In this document: positions 5,045-10,090 of the stretch, piece by piece
Position numbering within the stretch: the first letter of the stretch is position 1
How the letters are laid out: each line of letters opens with the position of its first letter
IMG/VR virus record: IMGVR_UViG_3300002307_000142
Location: 1-34,142 of that record
Reading direction: 5' to 3' (one strand)
Source of the DNA: a virus
Lineage: Duplodnaviria > Caudoviricetes
DNA: 34,142 nt
The notes under the pieces: model-generated
Told to the model about the DNA's origin: nothing
The model's database searches: none
The model's input: the letters and a program-made list of their open reading frames with translations, nothing else
Position numbers and translations under genes: made by a program

Positions 5045-5290
5045 ATGCCTGACGGTGCCGGCCCTCTTCACGTCTTCGGCTGGCCCGCCTCGATGCGGGC
5101 AGAGCGGGCCGCCGCCTACCTGGACGTGTCGAGGACCTATTTCCTCGGCAACATCGCGCCGCAGCTGGCGCCTATCCGCCTGGGGCCTGGCCTGGTGCTC
5201 TACCTCCGCCGGGACCTGGACGCCTGGCTTGACCAGCGGGCCGGCGCGGCCGCACCGTCGCCAGAGGACAACCCGTGGCCGGCAGCGTGA
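5045..5290 (+). CDS. AlpA/excisionase-like DNA-binding protein
   Basis: MRAERAAAYLDVSRTYF...LYLRRDLDAWLD winged-HTH pattern directly upstream of the integrase. Confidence 0.75.
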   Translation: MPDGAGPLHVFGWPASMRAERAAAYLDVSRTYFLGNIAPQLAPIRLGPGLVLYLRRDLDAWLDQRAGAAAPSPEDNPWPAA

Positions 5291-6372
5291 CCGTCGTTCA
5301 CCTGAAGCATATCTCGCGGTTCAAGGACCGGCACGGCCACCCGCGGGCGTATCTGCGCCTGCCCGGCCGCAAGCCCGTGAAGCTGCCCGGCGCGCCCGGC
5401 AGCCCTGAATTCATGGCCGCCTACCAGGCCGCCATCGCAGCCGAACCACCGCCGCCGCCAGGGCCGAAGCAGCCGCTAGCCGGCACGCTGGACGCGCTGG
5501 CCGCCAGCTACTACCGCAGCCCGGCCTTCACGGACCTGCGCGCCAGCACCCAGGCGACCTATCGCCGCATCATCGAGGACCTTCGCGCCAGCCATGGCGG
5601 CAAGCCGGTCCGGTTGCTGGACCCCACGCGCATCGCGGGGTTGATGGCGGAGAAGGCCGCGCACCGCACCGCCGCCAACCACCGCCTTCGCATCCTGAAG
5701 CACCTGATGGCGCACGCGATCGAGACGAAGGTGCTGGTCGCCGACCCCACCGCCGGCGTGAAGCGGCTGAAGCACAAGGCGAAGGGCTACGCCACCTGGT
5801 CCGAGGCCAACATCGCCCAGTACGAAGCCCGCTGGCCCAGCGGCACCCGCCAGAGGCTGGCCCTGGCCCTGCTGCTGTACACCGCCCAGCGCCGCAGCGA
5901 CGTGGTGAGGATGGGCCGCCAGCACGTCTCCGGCCGCATGATCCGCGTGCGCCAGGTGAAGACTGGCACGGAGCTGGAGATCCCCATCCATGCCGCCCTG
6001 GCCGCCGAGCTGGCGCATGTGCCGCAGGACCAGCTGGTCTTCCTGCTGACCAGCGAGGGCGCCGACGCCAAAGGCTTCACGCCCGGCGGGTTCTACAACC
6101 GCTTCATCGGCTGGTGCCAGGAGGCAGGCATGGCCGCCGGCCTCTCTCCGCATGGTTTGCGAAAGGCCTGCGCCCGCCGCTTGGCCGAGGCCGGCGCGAC
6201 GACGCACCAGATCGCCGCCGTCACCGGCCACCGCAACCTGGCGGAGGTGGAGCTGTACACCCGGGCGGCCAATCAGGCGCGGATGGCAGTGGCCGGGATG
6301 GCGCGAATCAAGAACAAGGCTTCCAACCCGACCGGGCGGAAACTTCCAACCCGGCGGGAAAGTGGCGGATAA
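5287..6372 (+). CDS. int: tyrosine recombinase (phage integrase)
   Basis: Catalytic motifs TAQRRSDV (R), QVKTG (K), HGLRK (HxxR), TGHRN (H), ELYTR (Y). GTG at 5287 overlaps the xis stop. Confidence 0.93.
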   Translation: MTVVHLKHISRFKDRHGHPRAYLRLPGRKPVKLPGAPGSPEFMAAYQAAIAAEPPPPPGPKQPLAGTLDALAASYYRSPAFTDLRASTQATYRRIIEDLRASHGGKPVRLLDPTRIAGLMAEKAAHRTAANHRLRILKHLMAHAIETKVLVADPTAGVKRLKHKAKGYATWSEANIAQYEARWPSGTRQRLALALLLYTAQRRSDVVRMGRQHVSGRMIRVRQVKTGTELEIPIHAALAAELAHVPQDQLVFLLTSEGADAKGFTPGGFYNRFIGWCQEAGMAAGLSPHGLRKACARRLAEAGATTHQIAAVTGHRNLAEVELYTRAANQARMAVAGMARIKNKASNPTGRKLPTRRESGG

Positions 6373-6502
6373 CGGCCAGTTTTTGCGGAGTATGGCGCGC
6401 CCTGAGGGGGTGAATTATTCGAGCGGCGGCAGCACGTTAAGCCATCCAACCCCAAAAGTTCCGTCACGGCGGTTCAATGGGTTACGGCCGATTTTCCAAC
6501 CC
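6320..6502. other. putative attP: tRNA 3'-end-like core at 6393-6408 with arm-type repeats
   Basis: Minus strand of 6393-6408 reads CCCTCAGGGCGCGCCA (T-stem, acceptor stem, CCA). TCCAACCC occurs at 6322, 6345, 6445 and 6495, two each side of the core. IHF-like TTCAATGGGTTA near 6473. Confidence 0.7.
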
Positions 6503-6518
6503 TATGAACGCGCGCGTA

Positions 6519-6554
6519 GGGTGGTTCCGGACTGTGCTGGGTCATTTGGCATGG
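6519..6554. repeat. 36-bp direct repeat A, copy 1 (copy 2 at 7311-7346)
   Basis: GGGTGGTTCCGGAC-N6-GGGTCATTTGGCATGG, 32/36 identical by manual alignment. Confidence 0.9.
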
Positions 6555-6865
6555 CGGGCAACCTCGTCCGTCTCGGGGTCAAGCACGCGGGCGGCGCGGA
6601 GGATGTTGTAGACCGTGCCGGCTACGTCGCCCTCCCAGGTTTCCGAGCCGTCGCTCGCGTACCAGCCTTCAGCGCCCAGCGCCTTGGCCAGCGTTTGCAA
6701 CACGAAGTCGGCCGCGAGGTCGGCGGCTTGCTCGACCGTCTCCGCGTTGAACGGGTGGGTGGTCTCGGCCGGGGTCGCCTGACCTGTCCCGGCATCCGCT
6801 CTCGCGGGGGATGGCGGGAACGACGCCCCGGCCGAAGTGGTGGTCGTCTTCAGGTCTTCGGCCAT
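6542..6865 (-). CDS. array protein MAEDLKTTTT..., contains the in-frame 26-aa mini-element
   Basis: GGAG RBS upstream of ATG 6865; overlaps neighbours; ends in HAK*. Confidence 0.65.
   Translation of the reverse strand: MAEDLKTTTTSAGASFPPSPARADAGTGQATPAETTHPFNAETVEQAADLAADFVLQTLAKALGAEGWYASDGSETWEGDVAGTVYNILRAARVLDPETDEVARHAK
6757..6841. mobile_element. MITE-like element, copy 1: GTGGT, 11-bp TIR, core, 11-bp TIR, GTGGT
   Basis: 80/85 identical to 7966-8050; arms CTCGGCCGGGG (6764-6774) and CCCCGGCCGAA (6826-6836). Confidence 0.65.
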
Positions 6866-7059
6866 GTGGCGGGCTCCATCAGGTTGACTAGCGGGCCGCG
6901 TGCCGGCCCCATGATGCGGCGGAGCCAGCCCATCGCCCACTTCGTATCCGCGAGGCACTTCCGGCATAGCCAGTTGCCGCACGGCTCAGGCTTCGCGTTA
7001 GCCGGCGCCGCACGCTCGCAGCCGACGCAGCGCAGGGTGGTCTTTGGGCTTTCGCTCAT
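6850..7059 (-). CDS. array protein MSESPKTT..., Cys-rich, possible Zn finger
   Basis: ATGA overlap with the upstream ORF; CVGC...C...CRKC. Confidence 0.6.
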   Translation of the reverse strand: MSESPKTTLRCVGCERAAPANAKPEPCGNWLCRKCLADTKWAMGWLRRIMGPARGPLVNLMEPATWPKT

Positions 7060-7193
7060 TGTGGCATCCCCATCGCGCGCAGCAGGGGCGGGCACCACCA
7101 ATCAGCCGAGGCGTCCAGCGCCACCATAGCCAGCAGCGTCAGGCCAATCGCCCACAGTTGCGGGTCAGTGGTGGTTTCCGAACGGTCAGACAT
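7056..7193 (-). CDS. array peptide MSDRSETTT..., 45 aa, hydrophobic
   Basis: GGAGGGAG RBS; translated by hand; ATGA overlap with the next ORF. Confidence 0.55.
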   Translation of the reverse strand: MSDRSETTTDPQLWAIGLTLLAMVALDASADWWCPPLLRAMGMPQ

Positions 7194-7344
7194 GCCACTC
7201 CCTCCAGATGTTGCCGCGCCAGGCGATCAGCACGCCACGGTCATGGACGCAGACCAGCAGCGGCCAGACATCCAGCAGGAACCCAGCCCAGCGCACAAAG
7301 CGCGCCCAGCGGGTGGTTCCGGACGCGGCGGGGTCATTTGGCAT
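7186..7344 (-). CDS. array peptide MPNDPAASGTT..., 52 aa, Trp-rich
   Basis: Translated by hand; overlaps both neighbours; same Thr-Thr frame as the other array genes. Confidence 0.5.
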   Translation of the reverse strand: MPNDPAASGTTRWARFVRWAGFLLDVWPLLVCVHDRGVLIAWRGNIWREWHV

Positions 7345-7346
7345 GG
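7311..7346. repeat. 36-bp direct repeat A, copy 2
   Basis: Matches 6519-6554. Confidence 0.9.
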
Positions 7347-7534
7347 TCGGTCATCCCAGCAGCAAGAGCCGCGCGAAGACGGTCAATCTCGGCCCGGATT
7401 GGCGCGGTGAACTTTGCTCGGTCTGGTCCGAAGTCCTTGGTCGCCAGCCTGTGGTTGAGGCGGTCGATCTTCTTCCGAGCAAGCGCCGCCGCCAGCGTGG
7501 AGGGGTGCAAGCCGGCGGCTTCAGAACCGCTCAT
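7334..7534 (-). CDS. array protein MSGSEAAG...HAK
   Basis: GGGAGG RBS; degenerate site GAAGCCGCC; same C-terminal HAK* as 6542-6865. Confidence 0.5.
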   Translation of the reverse strand: MSGSEAAGLHPSTLAAALARKKIDRLNHRLATKDFGPDRAKFTAPIRAEIDRLRAALAAGMTDHAK

Positions 7535-7835
7535 CTGGCATGGCCTCCCGTGCAATTTGCAGCCGGCGCTCCGCGACTGAGCACCAGTAATCGAAGCCCG
7601 GCTGAACCCCGAGTGTGTCGGCATCCGGGGCGCGCTCCCCGATCTTGCGAAGCGCCGCCCGCAGGCGGGCTATCTCGTCGCGCTGGCGCACCATGGCATC
7701 CCGGCACGACATGATGAACCGCCCGGCGCCCGGTTCGCCCTCCAGCATGGGCGACCACGCCCAATCCTGGCACATGCCGATCAGGTGCGCCGTCTCATGG
7801 TCAGGGCTGGCGGTGGTTTGCTGATCTACCGGCAC
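7521..7835 (-). CDS. array protein (V)PVDQQTTASP..., coiled-coil C-terminus
   Basis: GGAG RBS and GTG at 7835; RDEIARLRAALRKIG is typical of small phage proteins. Confidence 0.6.
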   Translation of the reverse strand: MPVDQQTTASPDHETAHLIGMCQDWAWSPMLEGEPGAGRFIMSCRDAMVRQRDEIARLRAALRKIGERAPDADTLGVQPGFDYWCSVAERRLQIAREAMPDERF

Positions 7836-7964
7836 AGCGGCGCTCCATGGGCTGATTGGTCGAGGAACGGGTTGCAGCCCCGCGTGGTGACGGCCCAGGC
7901 GGTGTAGAAGCCCGGCGCCAGGGCGAGGCAGGCGCCGATGGCCAGCGCCCACCACAGGCCGCGC
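7811..7964. repeat. 154-bp direct repeat C, copy 1 (copy 2 at 8970-9123)
   Basis: About 136/154 identical by manual alignment; 76/78 in the half next to GGTGGT. Confidence 0.92.
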
Positions 7965-8074
7965 CGGGTGGTTTCGGCCGGGGTCGCCTGACCTGTCCCG
8001 GCATCCGCTCCCGTGGGGGATGCGGGGAACGACGCCCCGGCCGAAGTGGTCGATTGCTGGTCAGCGTTCGGCAT
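7826..8074 (-). CDS. array membrane peptide MPNADQQSTT + mini-element + single TM domain
   Basis: GLWWALAIGACLALAPGFYTAWAV is hydrophobic; paralogue of 8985-9155. Confidence 0.6.
   Translation of the reverse strand: MPNADQQSTTSAGASFPASPTGADAGTGQATPAETTRRGLWWALAIGACLALAPGFYTAWAVTTRGCNPFLDQSAHGAPLCR
7966..8050. mobile_element. MITE-like element, copy 2, perfect 11-bp TIRs and 5-bp GTGGT direct repeats
   Basis: GTGGT 7968-7972, TTCGGCCGGGG 7973-7983, CCCCGGCCGAA 8035-8045, GTGGT 8046-8050. Confidence 0.7.
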
Positions 8075-8573
8075 TGGCATCCCCCACATAATGCACCCAC
8101 GTCGCGCGCACCTCGGCCGCAACCTGATAGCCGTCGCCATCCTGCGCCGTGTTGGCGCTGTCCAGCAGCGCGCGGGCGACGCGCTTCCAGTCGATAGGGT
8201 CGGCTGGCGCGTATTTCACTACCCGCCCCATCCACTCGAAATGTTCAGCCATCTCGGCCGGCGCCATTTCCCGGTGCCCCCAACGCCACACCTGCGCATC
8301 AGCGCGCCAGGTCCAGATGACCGGCGGCATGTCATGGCCCGGCACGTCGCGGCGCCGGACCCAATGGTAGCCGCTGGCGTGACTGGGTACGCCTCGGCCA
8401 TCCCAAGCCGGTGAATTTTCACGGGCCGGTGGGCCGCTGGTCCGCTCCCACTCAGCCAAACCAGCCAAAATGGCCGGGTCGGCGGCAAGCTCTGCCGCCA
8501 GCGCGCGGTCAGCTTCGGTCGGTGAAAATTCACCGGCGGCGGTCGTCTTGGACTTGCTAGGGCTGTCGGTCAT
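8061..8573 (-). CDS. array protein MTDSPSKSKTT..., Trp-rich
   Basis: ATGA overlap with the upstream ORF; 170 aa open frame. Confidence 0.6.
   Translation of the reverse strand: MTDSPSKSKTTAAGEFSPTEADRALAAELAADPAILAGLAEWERTSGPPARENSPAWDGRGVPSHASGYHWVRRRDVPGHDMPPVIWTWRADAQVWRWGHREMAPAEMAEHFEWMGRVVKYAPADPIDWKRVARALLDSANTAQDGDGYQVAAEVRATWVHYVGDANAER
8407..8537. repeat. perfect 16-bp inverted repeat
   Basis: GCCGGTGAATTTTCAC (8407-8422) and GTGAAAATTCACCGGC (8522-8537). Confidence 0.85.
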
Positions 8574-8803
8574 AGCTTCCACCCCCGCAGTTCCATCAGC
8601 GCGGCGATCATGGCGACCACGTTGCCCGCCGCCATCGCCCGCGCTGCGGTGTCCAGGTCGTTCCTCATGGCAGCCACAGCCCAACCGCCGGCCGAGCCGA
8701 TCTGCTGGTACGTGGGGATCACCTGGTCGCGGACGCGGGCCATCTCGCGCGGCAGCGCGTCGCCCAAGGTCTCGGTGGTTTGCTGGGTTGGCGTGTCAGT
8801 CAC
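8570..8803 (-). CDS. array protein (V)TDTPTQQTT..., 77 aa helical
   Basis: GAGGG RBS, GTGA overlap; plausible helical protein LGDALPREMARVRDQVIP... Confidence 0.7.
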   Translation of the reverse strand: MTDTPTQQTTETLGDALPREMARVRDQVIPTYQQIGSAGGWAVAAMRNDLDTAARAMAAGNVVAMIAALMELRGWKL

Positions 8804-8994
8804 GGCGATTCCCTCATGCGGCGTGCCTTGAAGGCGTCAAAGCGCTCCGTGACGTAGCGCAGGCTAATCGCTGTCCCGCGTTCCAACACCTCTCCGCAAT
8901 CCTTGAACTGGTATTCGACTACGCGGGGGTCAGCTAAATTGTCGGCGCATAGTAGAAAGCGATCACCGCCGGTGGTTTGCTGATCTACTGGCAC
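8800..8994 (-). CDS. array protein (V)PVDQQTTGG...
   Basis: GGAG RBS and GTG at 8994; same first 8 residues as 7521-7835 but an unrelated body. Confidence 0.55.
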   Translation of the reverse strand: MPVDQQTTGGDRFLLCADNLADPRVVEYQFKDCGEVLERGTAISLRYVTERFDAFKARRMRESP

Positions 8995-9123
8995 AGCGGC
9001 GCTCCGTGGGCTGATTGGTCGAGGAACGGGTTGCAGCCCCGCGTGGTCACGAACCAGGCGGAGTAGAGGCCCGGCGCTAAGCCGATGGCGGCGCCGATGA
9101 CCATGGCCCACAGCAGGCCGCGC
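8970..9123. repeat. 154-bp direct repeat C, copy 2
   Basis: Matches 7811-7964. Confidence 0.92.
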
Positions 9124-9155
9124 AGGGCCCTATTCGGGCTCGATGTCTTCGGCAC
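8985..9155 (-). CDS. first array gene, 56-aa single-TM peptide overlapping the recombinase 3' end
   Basis: Translated by hand: (V)PKTSSPNRALRGLLWAMVIGAAIGLAPGLYSAWFVTTRGCNPFLDQSAHGAPLCQ*. Confidence 0.55.
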   Translation of the reverse strand: MPKTSSPNRALRGLLWAMVIGAAIGLAPGLYSAWFVTTRGCNPFLDQSAHGAPLCQ

Positions 9156-9771
9156 CTCGCTCATCGGCGGCTTCCTTCATCGCGTTGTACAGCGTGGTGC
9201 GGCCCACCTTCAGCCGGGCGGCAGCCTGGCGCACCGTCAGGCCCTCGCCGCCCTCGCTTTCGTCCGCGATCATGCGGCGCCCGGCCTGGACAATCTCGGG
9301 CGTCATCACCGGCTTCCGGCCGCCCACCCTGCCCCGGTCCCGCGCCGCAGCCAGGCCGGCCAGCGTGCGCTCCTGGATCATCTCGCGCTCCAGCTGCGCG
9401 AAGCTGCCCATCACGCCGAACATGAAGCGGCCCATGGGCGTGCTGGTGTCTATGGCCTCGGTCAGCACCCGCAGTCGGCACCCCTTGGCGTTCAGCCGTT
9501 CCGCAGTCTGGAGTAGCTGCGAGAGGTTCCGGCCCAGCCTGTCCAGCTTCCAGATGACCAGCGTGTCGCCGGCCCGCAGCGCCTTGAAGCAGGCCAGGAA
9601 GCCCGGCCGGTCCAGCGTCGCTCCGCTGGCCTTGTCCGTGTAGATCCGGGTCGCCTGCACCCCGGCCTTGGTCAGCGCGTCGGTCTGAAGCTCCAACCGC
9701 TGGTCGTCCGTGGAGACGCGGGCGTAGCCGATGGAGAGAGCGCCGGGTACCGGCTCGGTTGGGAAGGCCAT
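9130..9771 (-). CDS. small serine recombinase (Hin/Pin/Gin resolvase-invertase family) with C-terminal HTH
   Basis: IGYARVSTDDQ, DKASG, GDTLVIWKLDRLGRN, FAQLEREMIQERTLAGLAAARDRGRVGGRKP, HTH TVRQAAARLKVGRTTLY. Confidence 0.95.
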   Translation of the reverse strand: MAFPTEPVPGALSIGYARVSTDDQRLELQTDALTKAGVQATRIYTDKASGATLDRPGFLACFKALRAGDTLVIWKLDRLGRNLSQLLQTAERLNAKGCRLRVLTEAIDTSTPMGRFMFGVMGSFAQLEREMIQERTLAGLAAARDRGRVGGRKPVMTPEIVQAGRRMIADESEGGEGLTVRQAAARLKVGRTTLYNAMKEAADERGAEDIEPE

Positions 9772-9818: not shown

Positions 9819-9998
9819 TTATTTCTCATTTCGGGACGCCTTTCGGGACTCATTCTCCCGGCGCTTCAACTCGGCCTCGACCGCCTCGCGGATGAACGTC
9901 GCCATGCGGTGCGGCCCAACCAGGGCGACGATGCGCGAGCGCACGTCCTCCGTCAGCCGGACCATGGTGGCCTTCACATTGAGCGGTGGTCTTCCCAT
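9819..9998 (-). CDS. ribbon-helix-helix (CopG/Arc-like) regulator
   Basis: MGRPPLNVKATMVRLTEDVRSRIVALVG...MATFIREAVEAELKRRE: beta strand plus two helices. Confidence 0.7.
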   Translation of the reverse strand: MGRPPLNVKATMVRLTEDVRSRIVALVGPHRMATFIREAVEAELKRRENESRKASRNEK

Positions 9999-10005
9999 GC
10001 GCCCT

Positions 10006-10090
10006 GGCCTAACCGCTATCGGATATTCCGTCAAAGCCGCCCCATAACCGCAATCGGTTATTGACGTATAACCGCAACCGCTTATAGGGT
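10006..10090. promoter_or_regulatory. divergent promoters overlapped by three palindromic operators
   Basis: TAACCGCTATCGGATA 10010-10025, ATAACCGCAATCGGTTAT 10044-10061, ATAACCGCAACCGCTTAT 10068-10085. TTGACG on + at 10061-10066 and on - at 10029-10034. Confidence 0.7.

Follow-up and report, generated by a model that had tools for sequence, protein, structure and literature searches.

Chance recombination is the usual explanation for how phages acquire and reorder small accessory genes, and integrons are reportedly carried by phages. Here we describe a locus in which the breakpoints of such exchanges are instead fixed to a codon: an array of overlapping small open reading frames (ORFs) downstream of a Gin-like small serine recombinase in the IMG/VR record IMGVR_UViG_3300002307_000142, which was analysed over its whole length (34,142 bp, referred to as the window; an uncultured freshwater phage, ~64% complete and 71% G+C). 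Gene bodies have been exchanged in frame at a short motif within the first codons, and we consider it probable that the array serves the phage as a gene-cassette platform, where headless bodies are swapped at this short intragenic site without loss of the reading frame, likely by the upstream recombinase. A second such locus was found in the phage G002.

The closest described systems share some but not all of these properties, as judged from the available parts of the published accounts. Like the array, integrons (IntI, attI, attC; PMC8618304) have a recombinase beside tandem, co-oriented and unrelated small genes, mostly of unassigned function, whose gain, loss and duplication occur unit by unit. 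The array differs in having a small serine recombinase and no attC hairpins, and in having its junction inside the coding sequence, with headless units that take their ribosome-binding site (RBS) and start codon from the preceding unit. The window's tyrosine integrase is of the phage type and no IntI model scored over the cut-off, and IntI is also absent from G002; ten of ten junction windows folded no better than shuffled sequences (z −0.91 to +2.01, + strand only), and Rfam gave no match. The Din multi-site inversion systems (Gin, Cin, Pin, p15B Min, D. nodosus nix; PMC3241671) share the enzyme family and a dix-like left half plus core, and both these and the R64 shufflon (PMC9881135) place the crossover inside an ORF and so fuse a head to alternative bodies in frame. 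In contrast to both, the sites here are half-sites of degenerate sequence, which in the window all have direct orientation, the bodies are unrelated genes, gene content changes, and every body comes with an RBS and head of its own rather than there being one constant expression site with homologous silent variants. The PeSL cassettes of T4-type phages (PMC2839356) also use repeated motifs to shuffle ORFans in a hyperplastic region, but PeSLs are intergenic promoter-terminator units, whereas here there is a coding repeat of ~9 nt and a linked dedicated recombinase; we found 0 promoter-like and 2 terminator-like matches at the array against 2.8 expected (sigma-70 consensus only). RADS defence-island markers (PMC13552941) are small serine recombinases beside co-transcribed variable cargo which they are postulated to mobilise, but the available part of that account describes no cassette sites, and here the cargo consists of phage accessory ORFans (PADLOC matched 0/11 array ORFs). 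We conclude that the array is not an integron, a shufflon or a PeSL system, and as the initial annotation had supposed when it did not recognise the system, no description of such an array was found in the open-access literature (subscription papers and supplements lay outside this scope). The shufflon enzyme Rci is a tyrosine recombinase with asymmetric sites, and the gene fusions at secondary Cin sites and the omp1 switch of D. nodosus are parallels.

All of the genes concerned lie on the minus strand: a gene for a small ribbon-helix-helix (RHH) type regulator, the recombinase, and then 11 overlapping small ORFs and a 16-codon terminal mini-ORF, in agreement with the dozen or so originally counted. 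Ten of these 12 starts carry [ST]T in the in-frame motif RR-(A/T)C(C/G)-ACC, compared with [ST]T within residues 2–12 at 4/36 hand-listed non-array starts (a few of which are mis-set or spurious). The ten N-termini quoted in the initial annotation are real and in frame, and exact GGTGGT (ACCACC on the coding strand) starts at all ten positions given there. This hexamer occurs ten times in 6502–9130 and 27 times in the other 31.5 kb, with one copy inside the array in the opposite orientation, and 1000 dinucleotide shuffles of the array gave a mean of 0.86 and a maximum of 5. The extended motif, which was defined post hoc after the data had been seen, occurs 14 times in the array against a shuffle mean of 0.95 and a maximum of 6, while the array's other strand has none and the remainder of the window has nine on one strand and six on the other. 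The starts at 9164 (MSEVPKTSS) and 7534 (MSGSEAAG) have no motif, and two further sites are found mid-ORF at the ends of an 81-bp linker without stop codons. The heads are rich in S, T, D, E, Q and P, are always in frame and overlap the upstream stop.

Nine of the ten window proteins looked up were found in the collection, and four of the ten have cluster mates in which a near-identical body stands behind another head, with the break at Thr-Thr. The body of ORF3 (8570..8803, 77 aa, head VTDTPTQQTT, site 8774–8779) begins ETLG and is found behind the head MTSKSETT in P0223, the ORF7 body (LHP; 7334..7534, 66 aa) is found behind MTQDRPETTS in P0230, and an identical ORF8 body (RWARF; 7186..7344, 52 aa, head MPNDPAASGTT, site 7312–7317) is found behind MSEDLKTT in P0232. 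The MSEDLK of the latter is a near copy of the head of ORF11 (6542..6865, 107 aa, head MAEDLKTT, sites 6839–6847), so that an ORF11-type head and an ORF8 body have been joined. The body of ORF10 (6850..7059, 69 aa, Cys-rich, head MSESPKTT, site 7036–7041) occurs behind three other heads in P0235–P0237, and that of ORF1 (8985..9164, 59 aa, overlapping the recombinase stop and with a head lacking the motif) behind a TTT head in P0253. The ORF1 body is also duplicated at 7826–7966 within ORF5 (7826..8074, 82 aa, head MPNADQQST, site TCGACC 8048–8053), which contains the linker and an internal site at 7967–7972. A second copy of the linker, with an internal site at 6758–6763, is found in ORF11, which has its own body. 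Taken over P0226, P0238 and P0256, the linker stands behind three distinct heads and before three distinct bodies, in P0256 between flanks unlike those of ORF5. The break falls at the last Thr (or Ser) codon, with one body behind several heads and one head before several bodies.

DNA joints in metagenome contigs (X1 to X4) bear on the same question. In X2 and X4, contigs follow the constant flank as far as 6522 and then diverge; this position is inside the last site (6520–6525), which belongs to the terminal head MPNDPAQSGTT (6502..6552) at the border to the flank, where it leads into just five codons and a stop. Past 6522 the X4 contig continues with nine letters whose sole occurrence in the window is at 6845–6853, in register at ACC, and the ORF11 head is therefore joined directly to the terminal site. 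An X1 variant leaves the window exactly at 8541, in the site (ACGACC 8541–8546) of ORF4 (8061..8573, 170 aa, head MTDSPSKSKTT), beyond which there could be a terminator or another in-frame unit, and another X1 variant joins a KTT-type head at 7512; the depth of the X1 variants is ~8 compared with ~100 (computed assuming 30 aligned letters). Among the records listed three X1 loose ends lie off the motif, at 8769, 9111 and 6442, the first of which (5 nt past a motif) is probably a homologue, and it should be noted that X2–X4 barely cover the array and that their gaps say nothing about absence. The word lengths that assemblers usually use exceed 5–9 nt, and as the joints share only 5–9 nt, assembly chimeras were rejected as their origin. 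Judged from these proteins and joints together, gene bodies have been exchanged in frame at the motif, and the head swaps, the X4 joint and the X1 end at 8541 uphold the original suggestion of shuffling at ACCAC.

We note that the X1 contigs of the array (6772–9036) have depths of 92–109 compared with 73 and 83 for the flanks, which suggests extra copies in circles or related phages. A circle of 6841–7512 was considered as the source of the X1 joint at 7512, but the contig 6772–7512 is unbroken and a related genome is at least as likely.

All three of the duplicated blocks in the array (36, 85 and 154 bp) end 1 nt after ACCACC, much as the initial annotation had described, except that the upstream end of the 36-bp block lies at CC-ATG and only its downstream end at the motif, and that in the first copy of the 154-bp block the upstream end lacks the motif. 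The unit proposed there, a headless body with its stop, RBS and the head of the next gene, held in five comparisons (the 154-bp block and P0223, P0230, P0232 and P0237, which keep the C-terminus). As a model it is incomplete, since five others show a given head after different bodies, or a given body with another tail (the 36-bp block, the X2 loose end at 6554, the X1 loose end at 6860, the G002 30-bp repeat and the P0249/P0250 tails), and these deviations point to a second, looser breakpoint near the RBS and start codon. This unit is the usual module, then, rather than the sole one.

G002 is a complete phage of 52 kb whose recombinase is 67% identical to that of the window, and its genes follow the order RHH gene, recombinase, three small ORFs, a parA module and an opposed chain of ~10 small ORFs. 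The same architecture is thus repeated beside a related recombinase, here as two opposed arrays with arms that are 86% complementary over 29 nt; no inverted isoform was seen. Its heads carry AA-ACG-AGC, a perfect 30-bp repeat of a head breaks off after ACG-AG, and one of ten look-ups returned mates bearing another head, with the break at TS/TN (P0249-50). The last codon is AGC in 9/9 Thr-Ser heads of G002 compared with 45/109 Ser codons (7 ORFs), with AAC, AGG and GGC as one-base neighbours, and ACC in 12/12 window sites compared with 207/400 Thr codons (13 long ORFs), although these counts are partly dependent because heads are duplicated. The constraint acts on the DNA and not on the peptide. 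The region between the two opposed arrays (L282 8770–11660) holds parA with a putative gene for replication, as well as repeats rich in ATGTCGACAT, and G002 looks like a phage-plasmid with a module that could be invertible.

The RHH–recombinase pair is also found in L002, where the contig ends at the recombinase stop. Arrays are present in 2/2 clade loci having downstream DNA. A scan using head rules derived from these two loci gave 9 heads per 3 kb in the window and 4 in G002; no more than 2 were scored at any of 265 other resolvase loci, and no more than 1 at any of the 28 loci with the RHH gene only. When chained small ORFs were called without reference to the motif, it was present in 8/10 and 7/10 array ORFs of the window and G002, respectively, in 2/20 and 0/44 from the rest of the two phages, and in 4/352, 5/425 and 8/955 from the control sets, whose ORF lists include spurious ORFs and host DNA. 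Searching with the recombinase alignment A1 returned generic resolvases and, of the clade, only L002; searches with degenerate patterns returned 12 unrelated loci, none, and only G002; and no match to the clade was found in 401 family genomes, 251 relatives and 401 class genomes, or in annotated phages or plasmids. A scan with the head pattern found G002 twice plus 14 loci without an array or recombinase, the 11 cassette proteins had no match in any of 394 fetched loci, and no contig was found for P0236 and P0144. The RHH gene is not a marker for the system, as the recombinase is present at 1/29 RHH loci and a representative search on this gene added nothing.

The recombinase (9130..9771, 213 aa) was called Hin/Pin-type in the initial annotation and is indeed of the Hin/Gin type, with its start corrected to ATG at 9771. 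It matches PF00239 (1.5e-47) and the phrog_125 DNA invertases (1.3e-69), and its best PDB sequence match is Gin (4m6f, 8e-49). The catalytic motifs YARVS and DRLGR are intact, and the catalytic motifs are kept across the 53 clade members of A1; a C-terminal helix-turn-helix is present, and the DNA-binding domain has a clade-specific EGGEG insert. Its predicted structure has the small serine recombinase fold (mean pLDDT 84.6), and on sequence and model it belongs to the small serine recombinases of the Din (Gin/Hin) type. The clade keeps a C-terminal GAxDL tail (window 9133–9150) in which D209 is nearly invariant, and in both phages its coding sequence overlaps the beginning of the array's first gene.

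Our proposal is that the site consists of a Din-type half-site, RR-AC(C/G), and a 2-bp core (AC in the window and mostly AG in G002), with an unconstrained right side. The core would sit at a fixed codon position downstream of the RBS and start codon, so that any body joined there would be translated at once. Recombination of direct sites, whether within one genome or between phages infecting the same cell, would remove units, duplicate them or bring them in, and in G002 crossing over between the opposed arrays would lead to inversion and exchange of units. The source of new units would likely be ordinary phage operons with M-x-T/S gene starts, together with a looser second exchange near the start codon. 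The ORF3 family, which is widespread in phages, fits the capture of an ordinary phage gene by a replaced start, as its five closest outside homologues all have [ST]T heads (the sixth-ranked has no head and is in neither count) and most of the 72 most distant start plainly MxET or MDT. An RHH-controlled promoter is predicted to drive the recombinase and array as a single operon.

Din sites take the form AAACC-core-GGTTT, with a symmetric 26-bp dix consensus (AAAC-core-GTTT) according to which the enzymes normally need two site halves (PMC3241671). The sites of ORF2 (8800..8994, 64 aa, site 8971–8976) and ORF6 (7521..7835, 104 aa, site 7812–7817), both with the head VPVDQQTT, and the other QQTT sites read CAAACC-AC-C, where the left half and core of pix/mix read CAAACC-AA-C/G (PMC3241671, Table 3). 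Taking the X4 joint with the end of the G002 30-bp repeat, the crossover would be narrowed down to bases one and two of the final codon (window, AC; G002, AG). Serine recombinases require identical cores, which would explain why each genome has one main core, and slips of one codon between tandem ACC triplets would explain TT versus TTT. Of the integron-like capture proposed in the initial annotation, in-frame exchange at the motif stands, and the serine recombinase is rather likely to be the agent that swaps the bodies. More tentatively, and as slightly less than an even chance, a clade of Gin-like invertases in alphaproteobacterial phages may be gene-capture enzymes that use degenerate half-sites in the first codons, harvest phage genes by replacing their starts, build expressed arrays, and sort cassette pools by the 2-bp core (AC or AG). 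If confirmed, this would be a second, independent invention of the integron principle and its serine-recombinase counterpart, a Din enzyme that works on half-sites in the absence of inversion geometry, and a recombinase able to fuse genes in frame at a very short site; with breakpoints fixed to a codon and a strong candidate enzyme, the question is testable by one plasmid assay.

Several observations weigh against recombinase-driven exchange, and some speak for microhomology mosaicism, in which a RecT/ERF-type annealase or illegitimate recombination acts at shared N-terminal sequence with selection for in-frame products, the recombinase being a bystander or dimer resolver. The match to Din sites extends over the inner left half and core position for only 5–6 nt, and no RRACS-NN-SGTYY or symmetric full Din site was found in or near either array, so the right half is absent. 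Din enzymes normally also depend on an enhancer and Fis. The second class of breakpoints at the RBS/ATG needs a second mechanism, G002 encodes RecT and YqaJ, and a resolvase could also serve its parA module. The larger of its arrays lies beyond an early operon, ~3.7 kb away from the recombinase. In the ORF3 family M-x-T starts are frequent, and [ST]T occurs naturally before the body core in 6/72 of the most distant homologues. The cluster mates come without DNA context, the joint tables of the contig searches were empty (no listed joint among the records listed), no circle joint was among the records listed for X1, and X1 may be the window's source sample (X4 is from another study). Only two clade loci were testable, and the role of the recombinase is deduced from sequence and linkage in these two. 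Nonetheless, we think microhomology unlikely as the explanation, as the swapped heads share just ~5–8 nt, and it leaves both the fixation of the core at codon level and the switch from AC to AG between the phages unexplained. Furthermore, the motif is missing from the chained small ORFs of 28 regions with the RHH gene only and of 36 integrase flanks (some of these regions are not prophage DNA), and the ~64%-complete window record has no RecT, which is a weak point.

It is considerably less likely still that the heads have been selected as peptides or translation signals (for coupling, stability or as targeting tags) with swaps as rare accidents at the end of the tag. Their composition, constant frame and overlap with the upstream stop would suit such a role, but synonymous codons are unused (12/12 ACC and 9/9 AGC), variants are one-base neighbours encoding unlike residues (Asn, Arg, Gly), the terminal head precedes only its five codons and stop, and sites are also found mid-ORF at the ends of linkers. 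Exchange by another site-specific enzyme, either the adjacent tyrosine integrase or a host recombinase, is the least credible alternative, for while the array ends 150 bp from the integrase and beside a probable attP, the complete G002 genome has arrays with no tyrosine integrase or PF00589 match and so makes this enzyme dispensable, no integron-integrase model passed its cut-off, the integrase has arm-like repeats of its own, and the flanks of related integrases have no array.

The remaining ORF of the array, ORF9 (7056..7193, 45 aa), has the head MSDRSETTT with a site at 7170–7175, and Pfam and PADLOC gave no match for any of the 11 array ORFs, one of which had two weak PHROG matches. Of the degenerate sites listed in the initial annotation, those at 7514 and 8541 were found, and the one placed at 8045 is the TCGACC of ORF5. 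The ORF7 site (GCCGCC 7514–7519) has A-to-G changes at first codon positions and reads Ala-Ala-Gly where P0230 has Thr-Thr-Ser, and represents either an ancestral start that was never captured or a site since silenced.

The RHH gene (9819..9998, minus strand; a weak phrog_4113 match) heads the operon and lies upstream of the recombinase in 3/3 clade loci (window, L001, L002); its RHH label comes from the sequence pattern alone, Pfam having given no match. Upstream of it are palindromic repeats and a divergent promoter (10009..10085, no strand assigned) that are likely RHH operators. These palindromes were considered as recombinase sites and rejected, as similar boxes are found at 22/27 RHH loci, nearly all of them without the recombinase. 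In the 100 bp upstream of the RHH gene, L285–L313 share a widespread module of a leaderless RHH gene, divergent promoters and palindromic operators, with a spacer that varies by locus.

The window record also carries contractile-tail, lysis, ParB and tyrosine-integrase genes, and was detected in a single freshwater metagenome run, possibly its source; three lake runs from a second study contained small shares of it. The host is likely to belong to the Acetobacteraceae, since the closest named relative of the recombinase is from Teichococcus wenyumeiae (71%). The neighbouring region (5275..6502, plus strand), which lies outside the array system, includes the phage-type tyrosine integrase (5275–6372) and a probable attP with four arm-like TCCAACCC repeats (6322–6502) at 6322, 6345, 6445 and 6495. 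An X1 contig matches the stretch ending at 6442 and then runs into the apparent end of a host gene, which is a possible attachment core. The closest relative of the integrase (70%; G282, L330 1700–1800) is located at a tRNA-like gene, unlike the apparent target of the window integrase.

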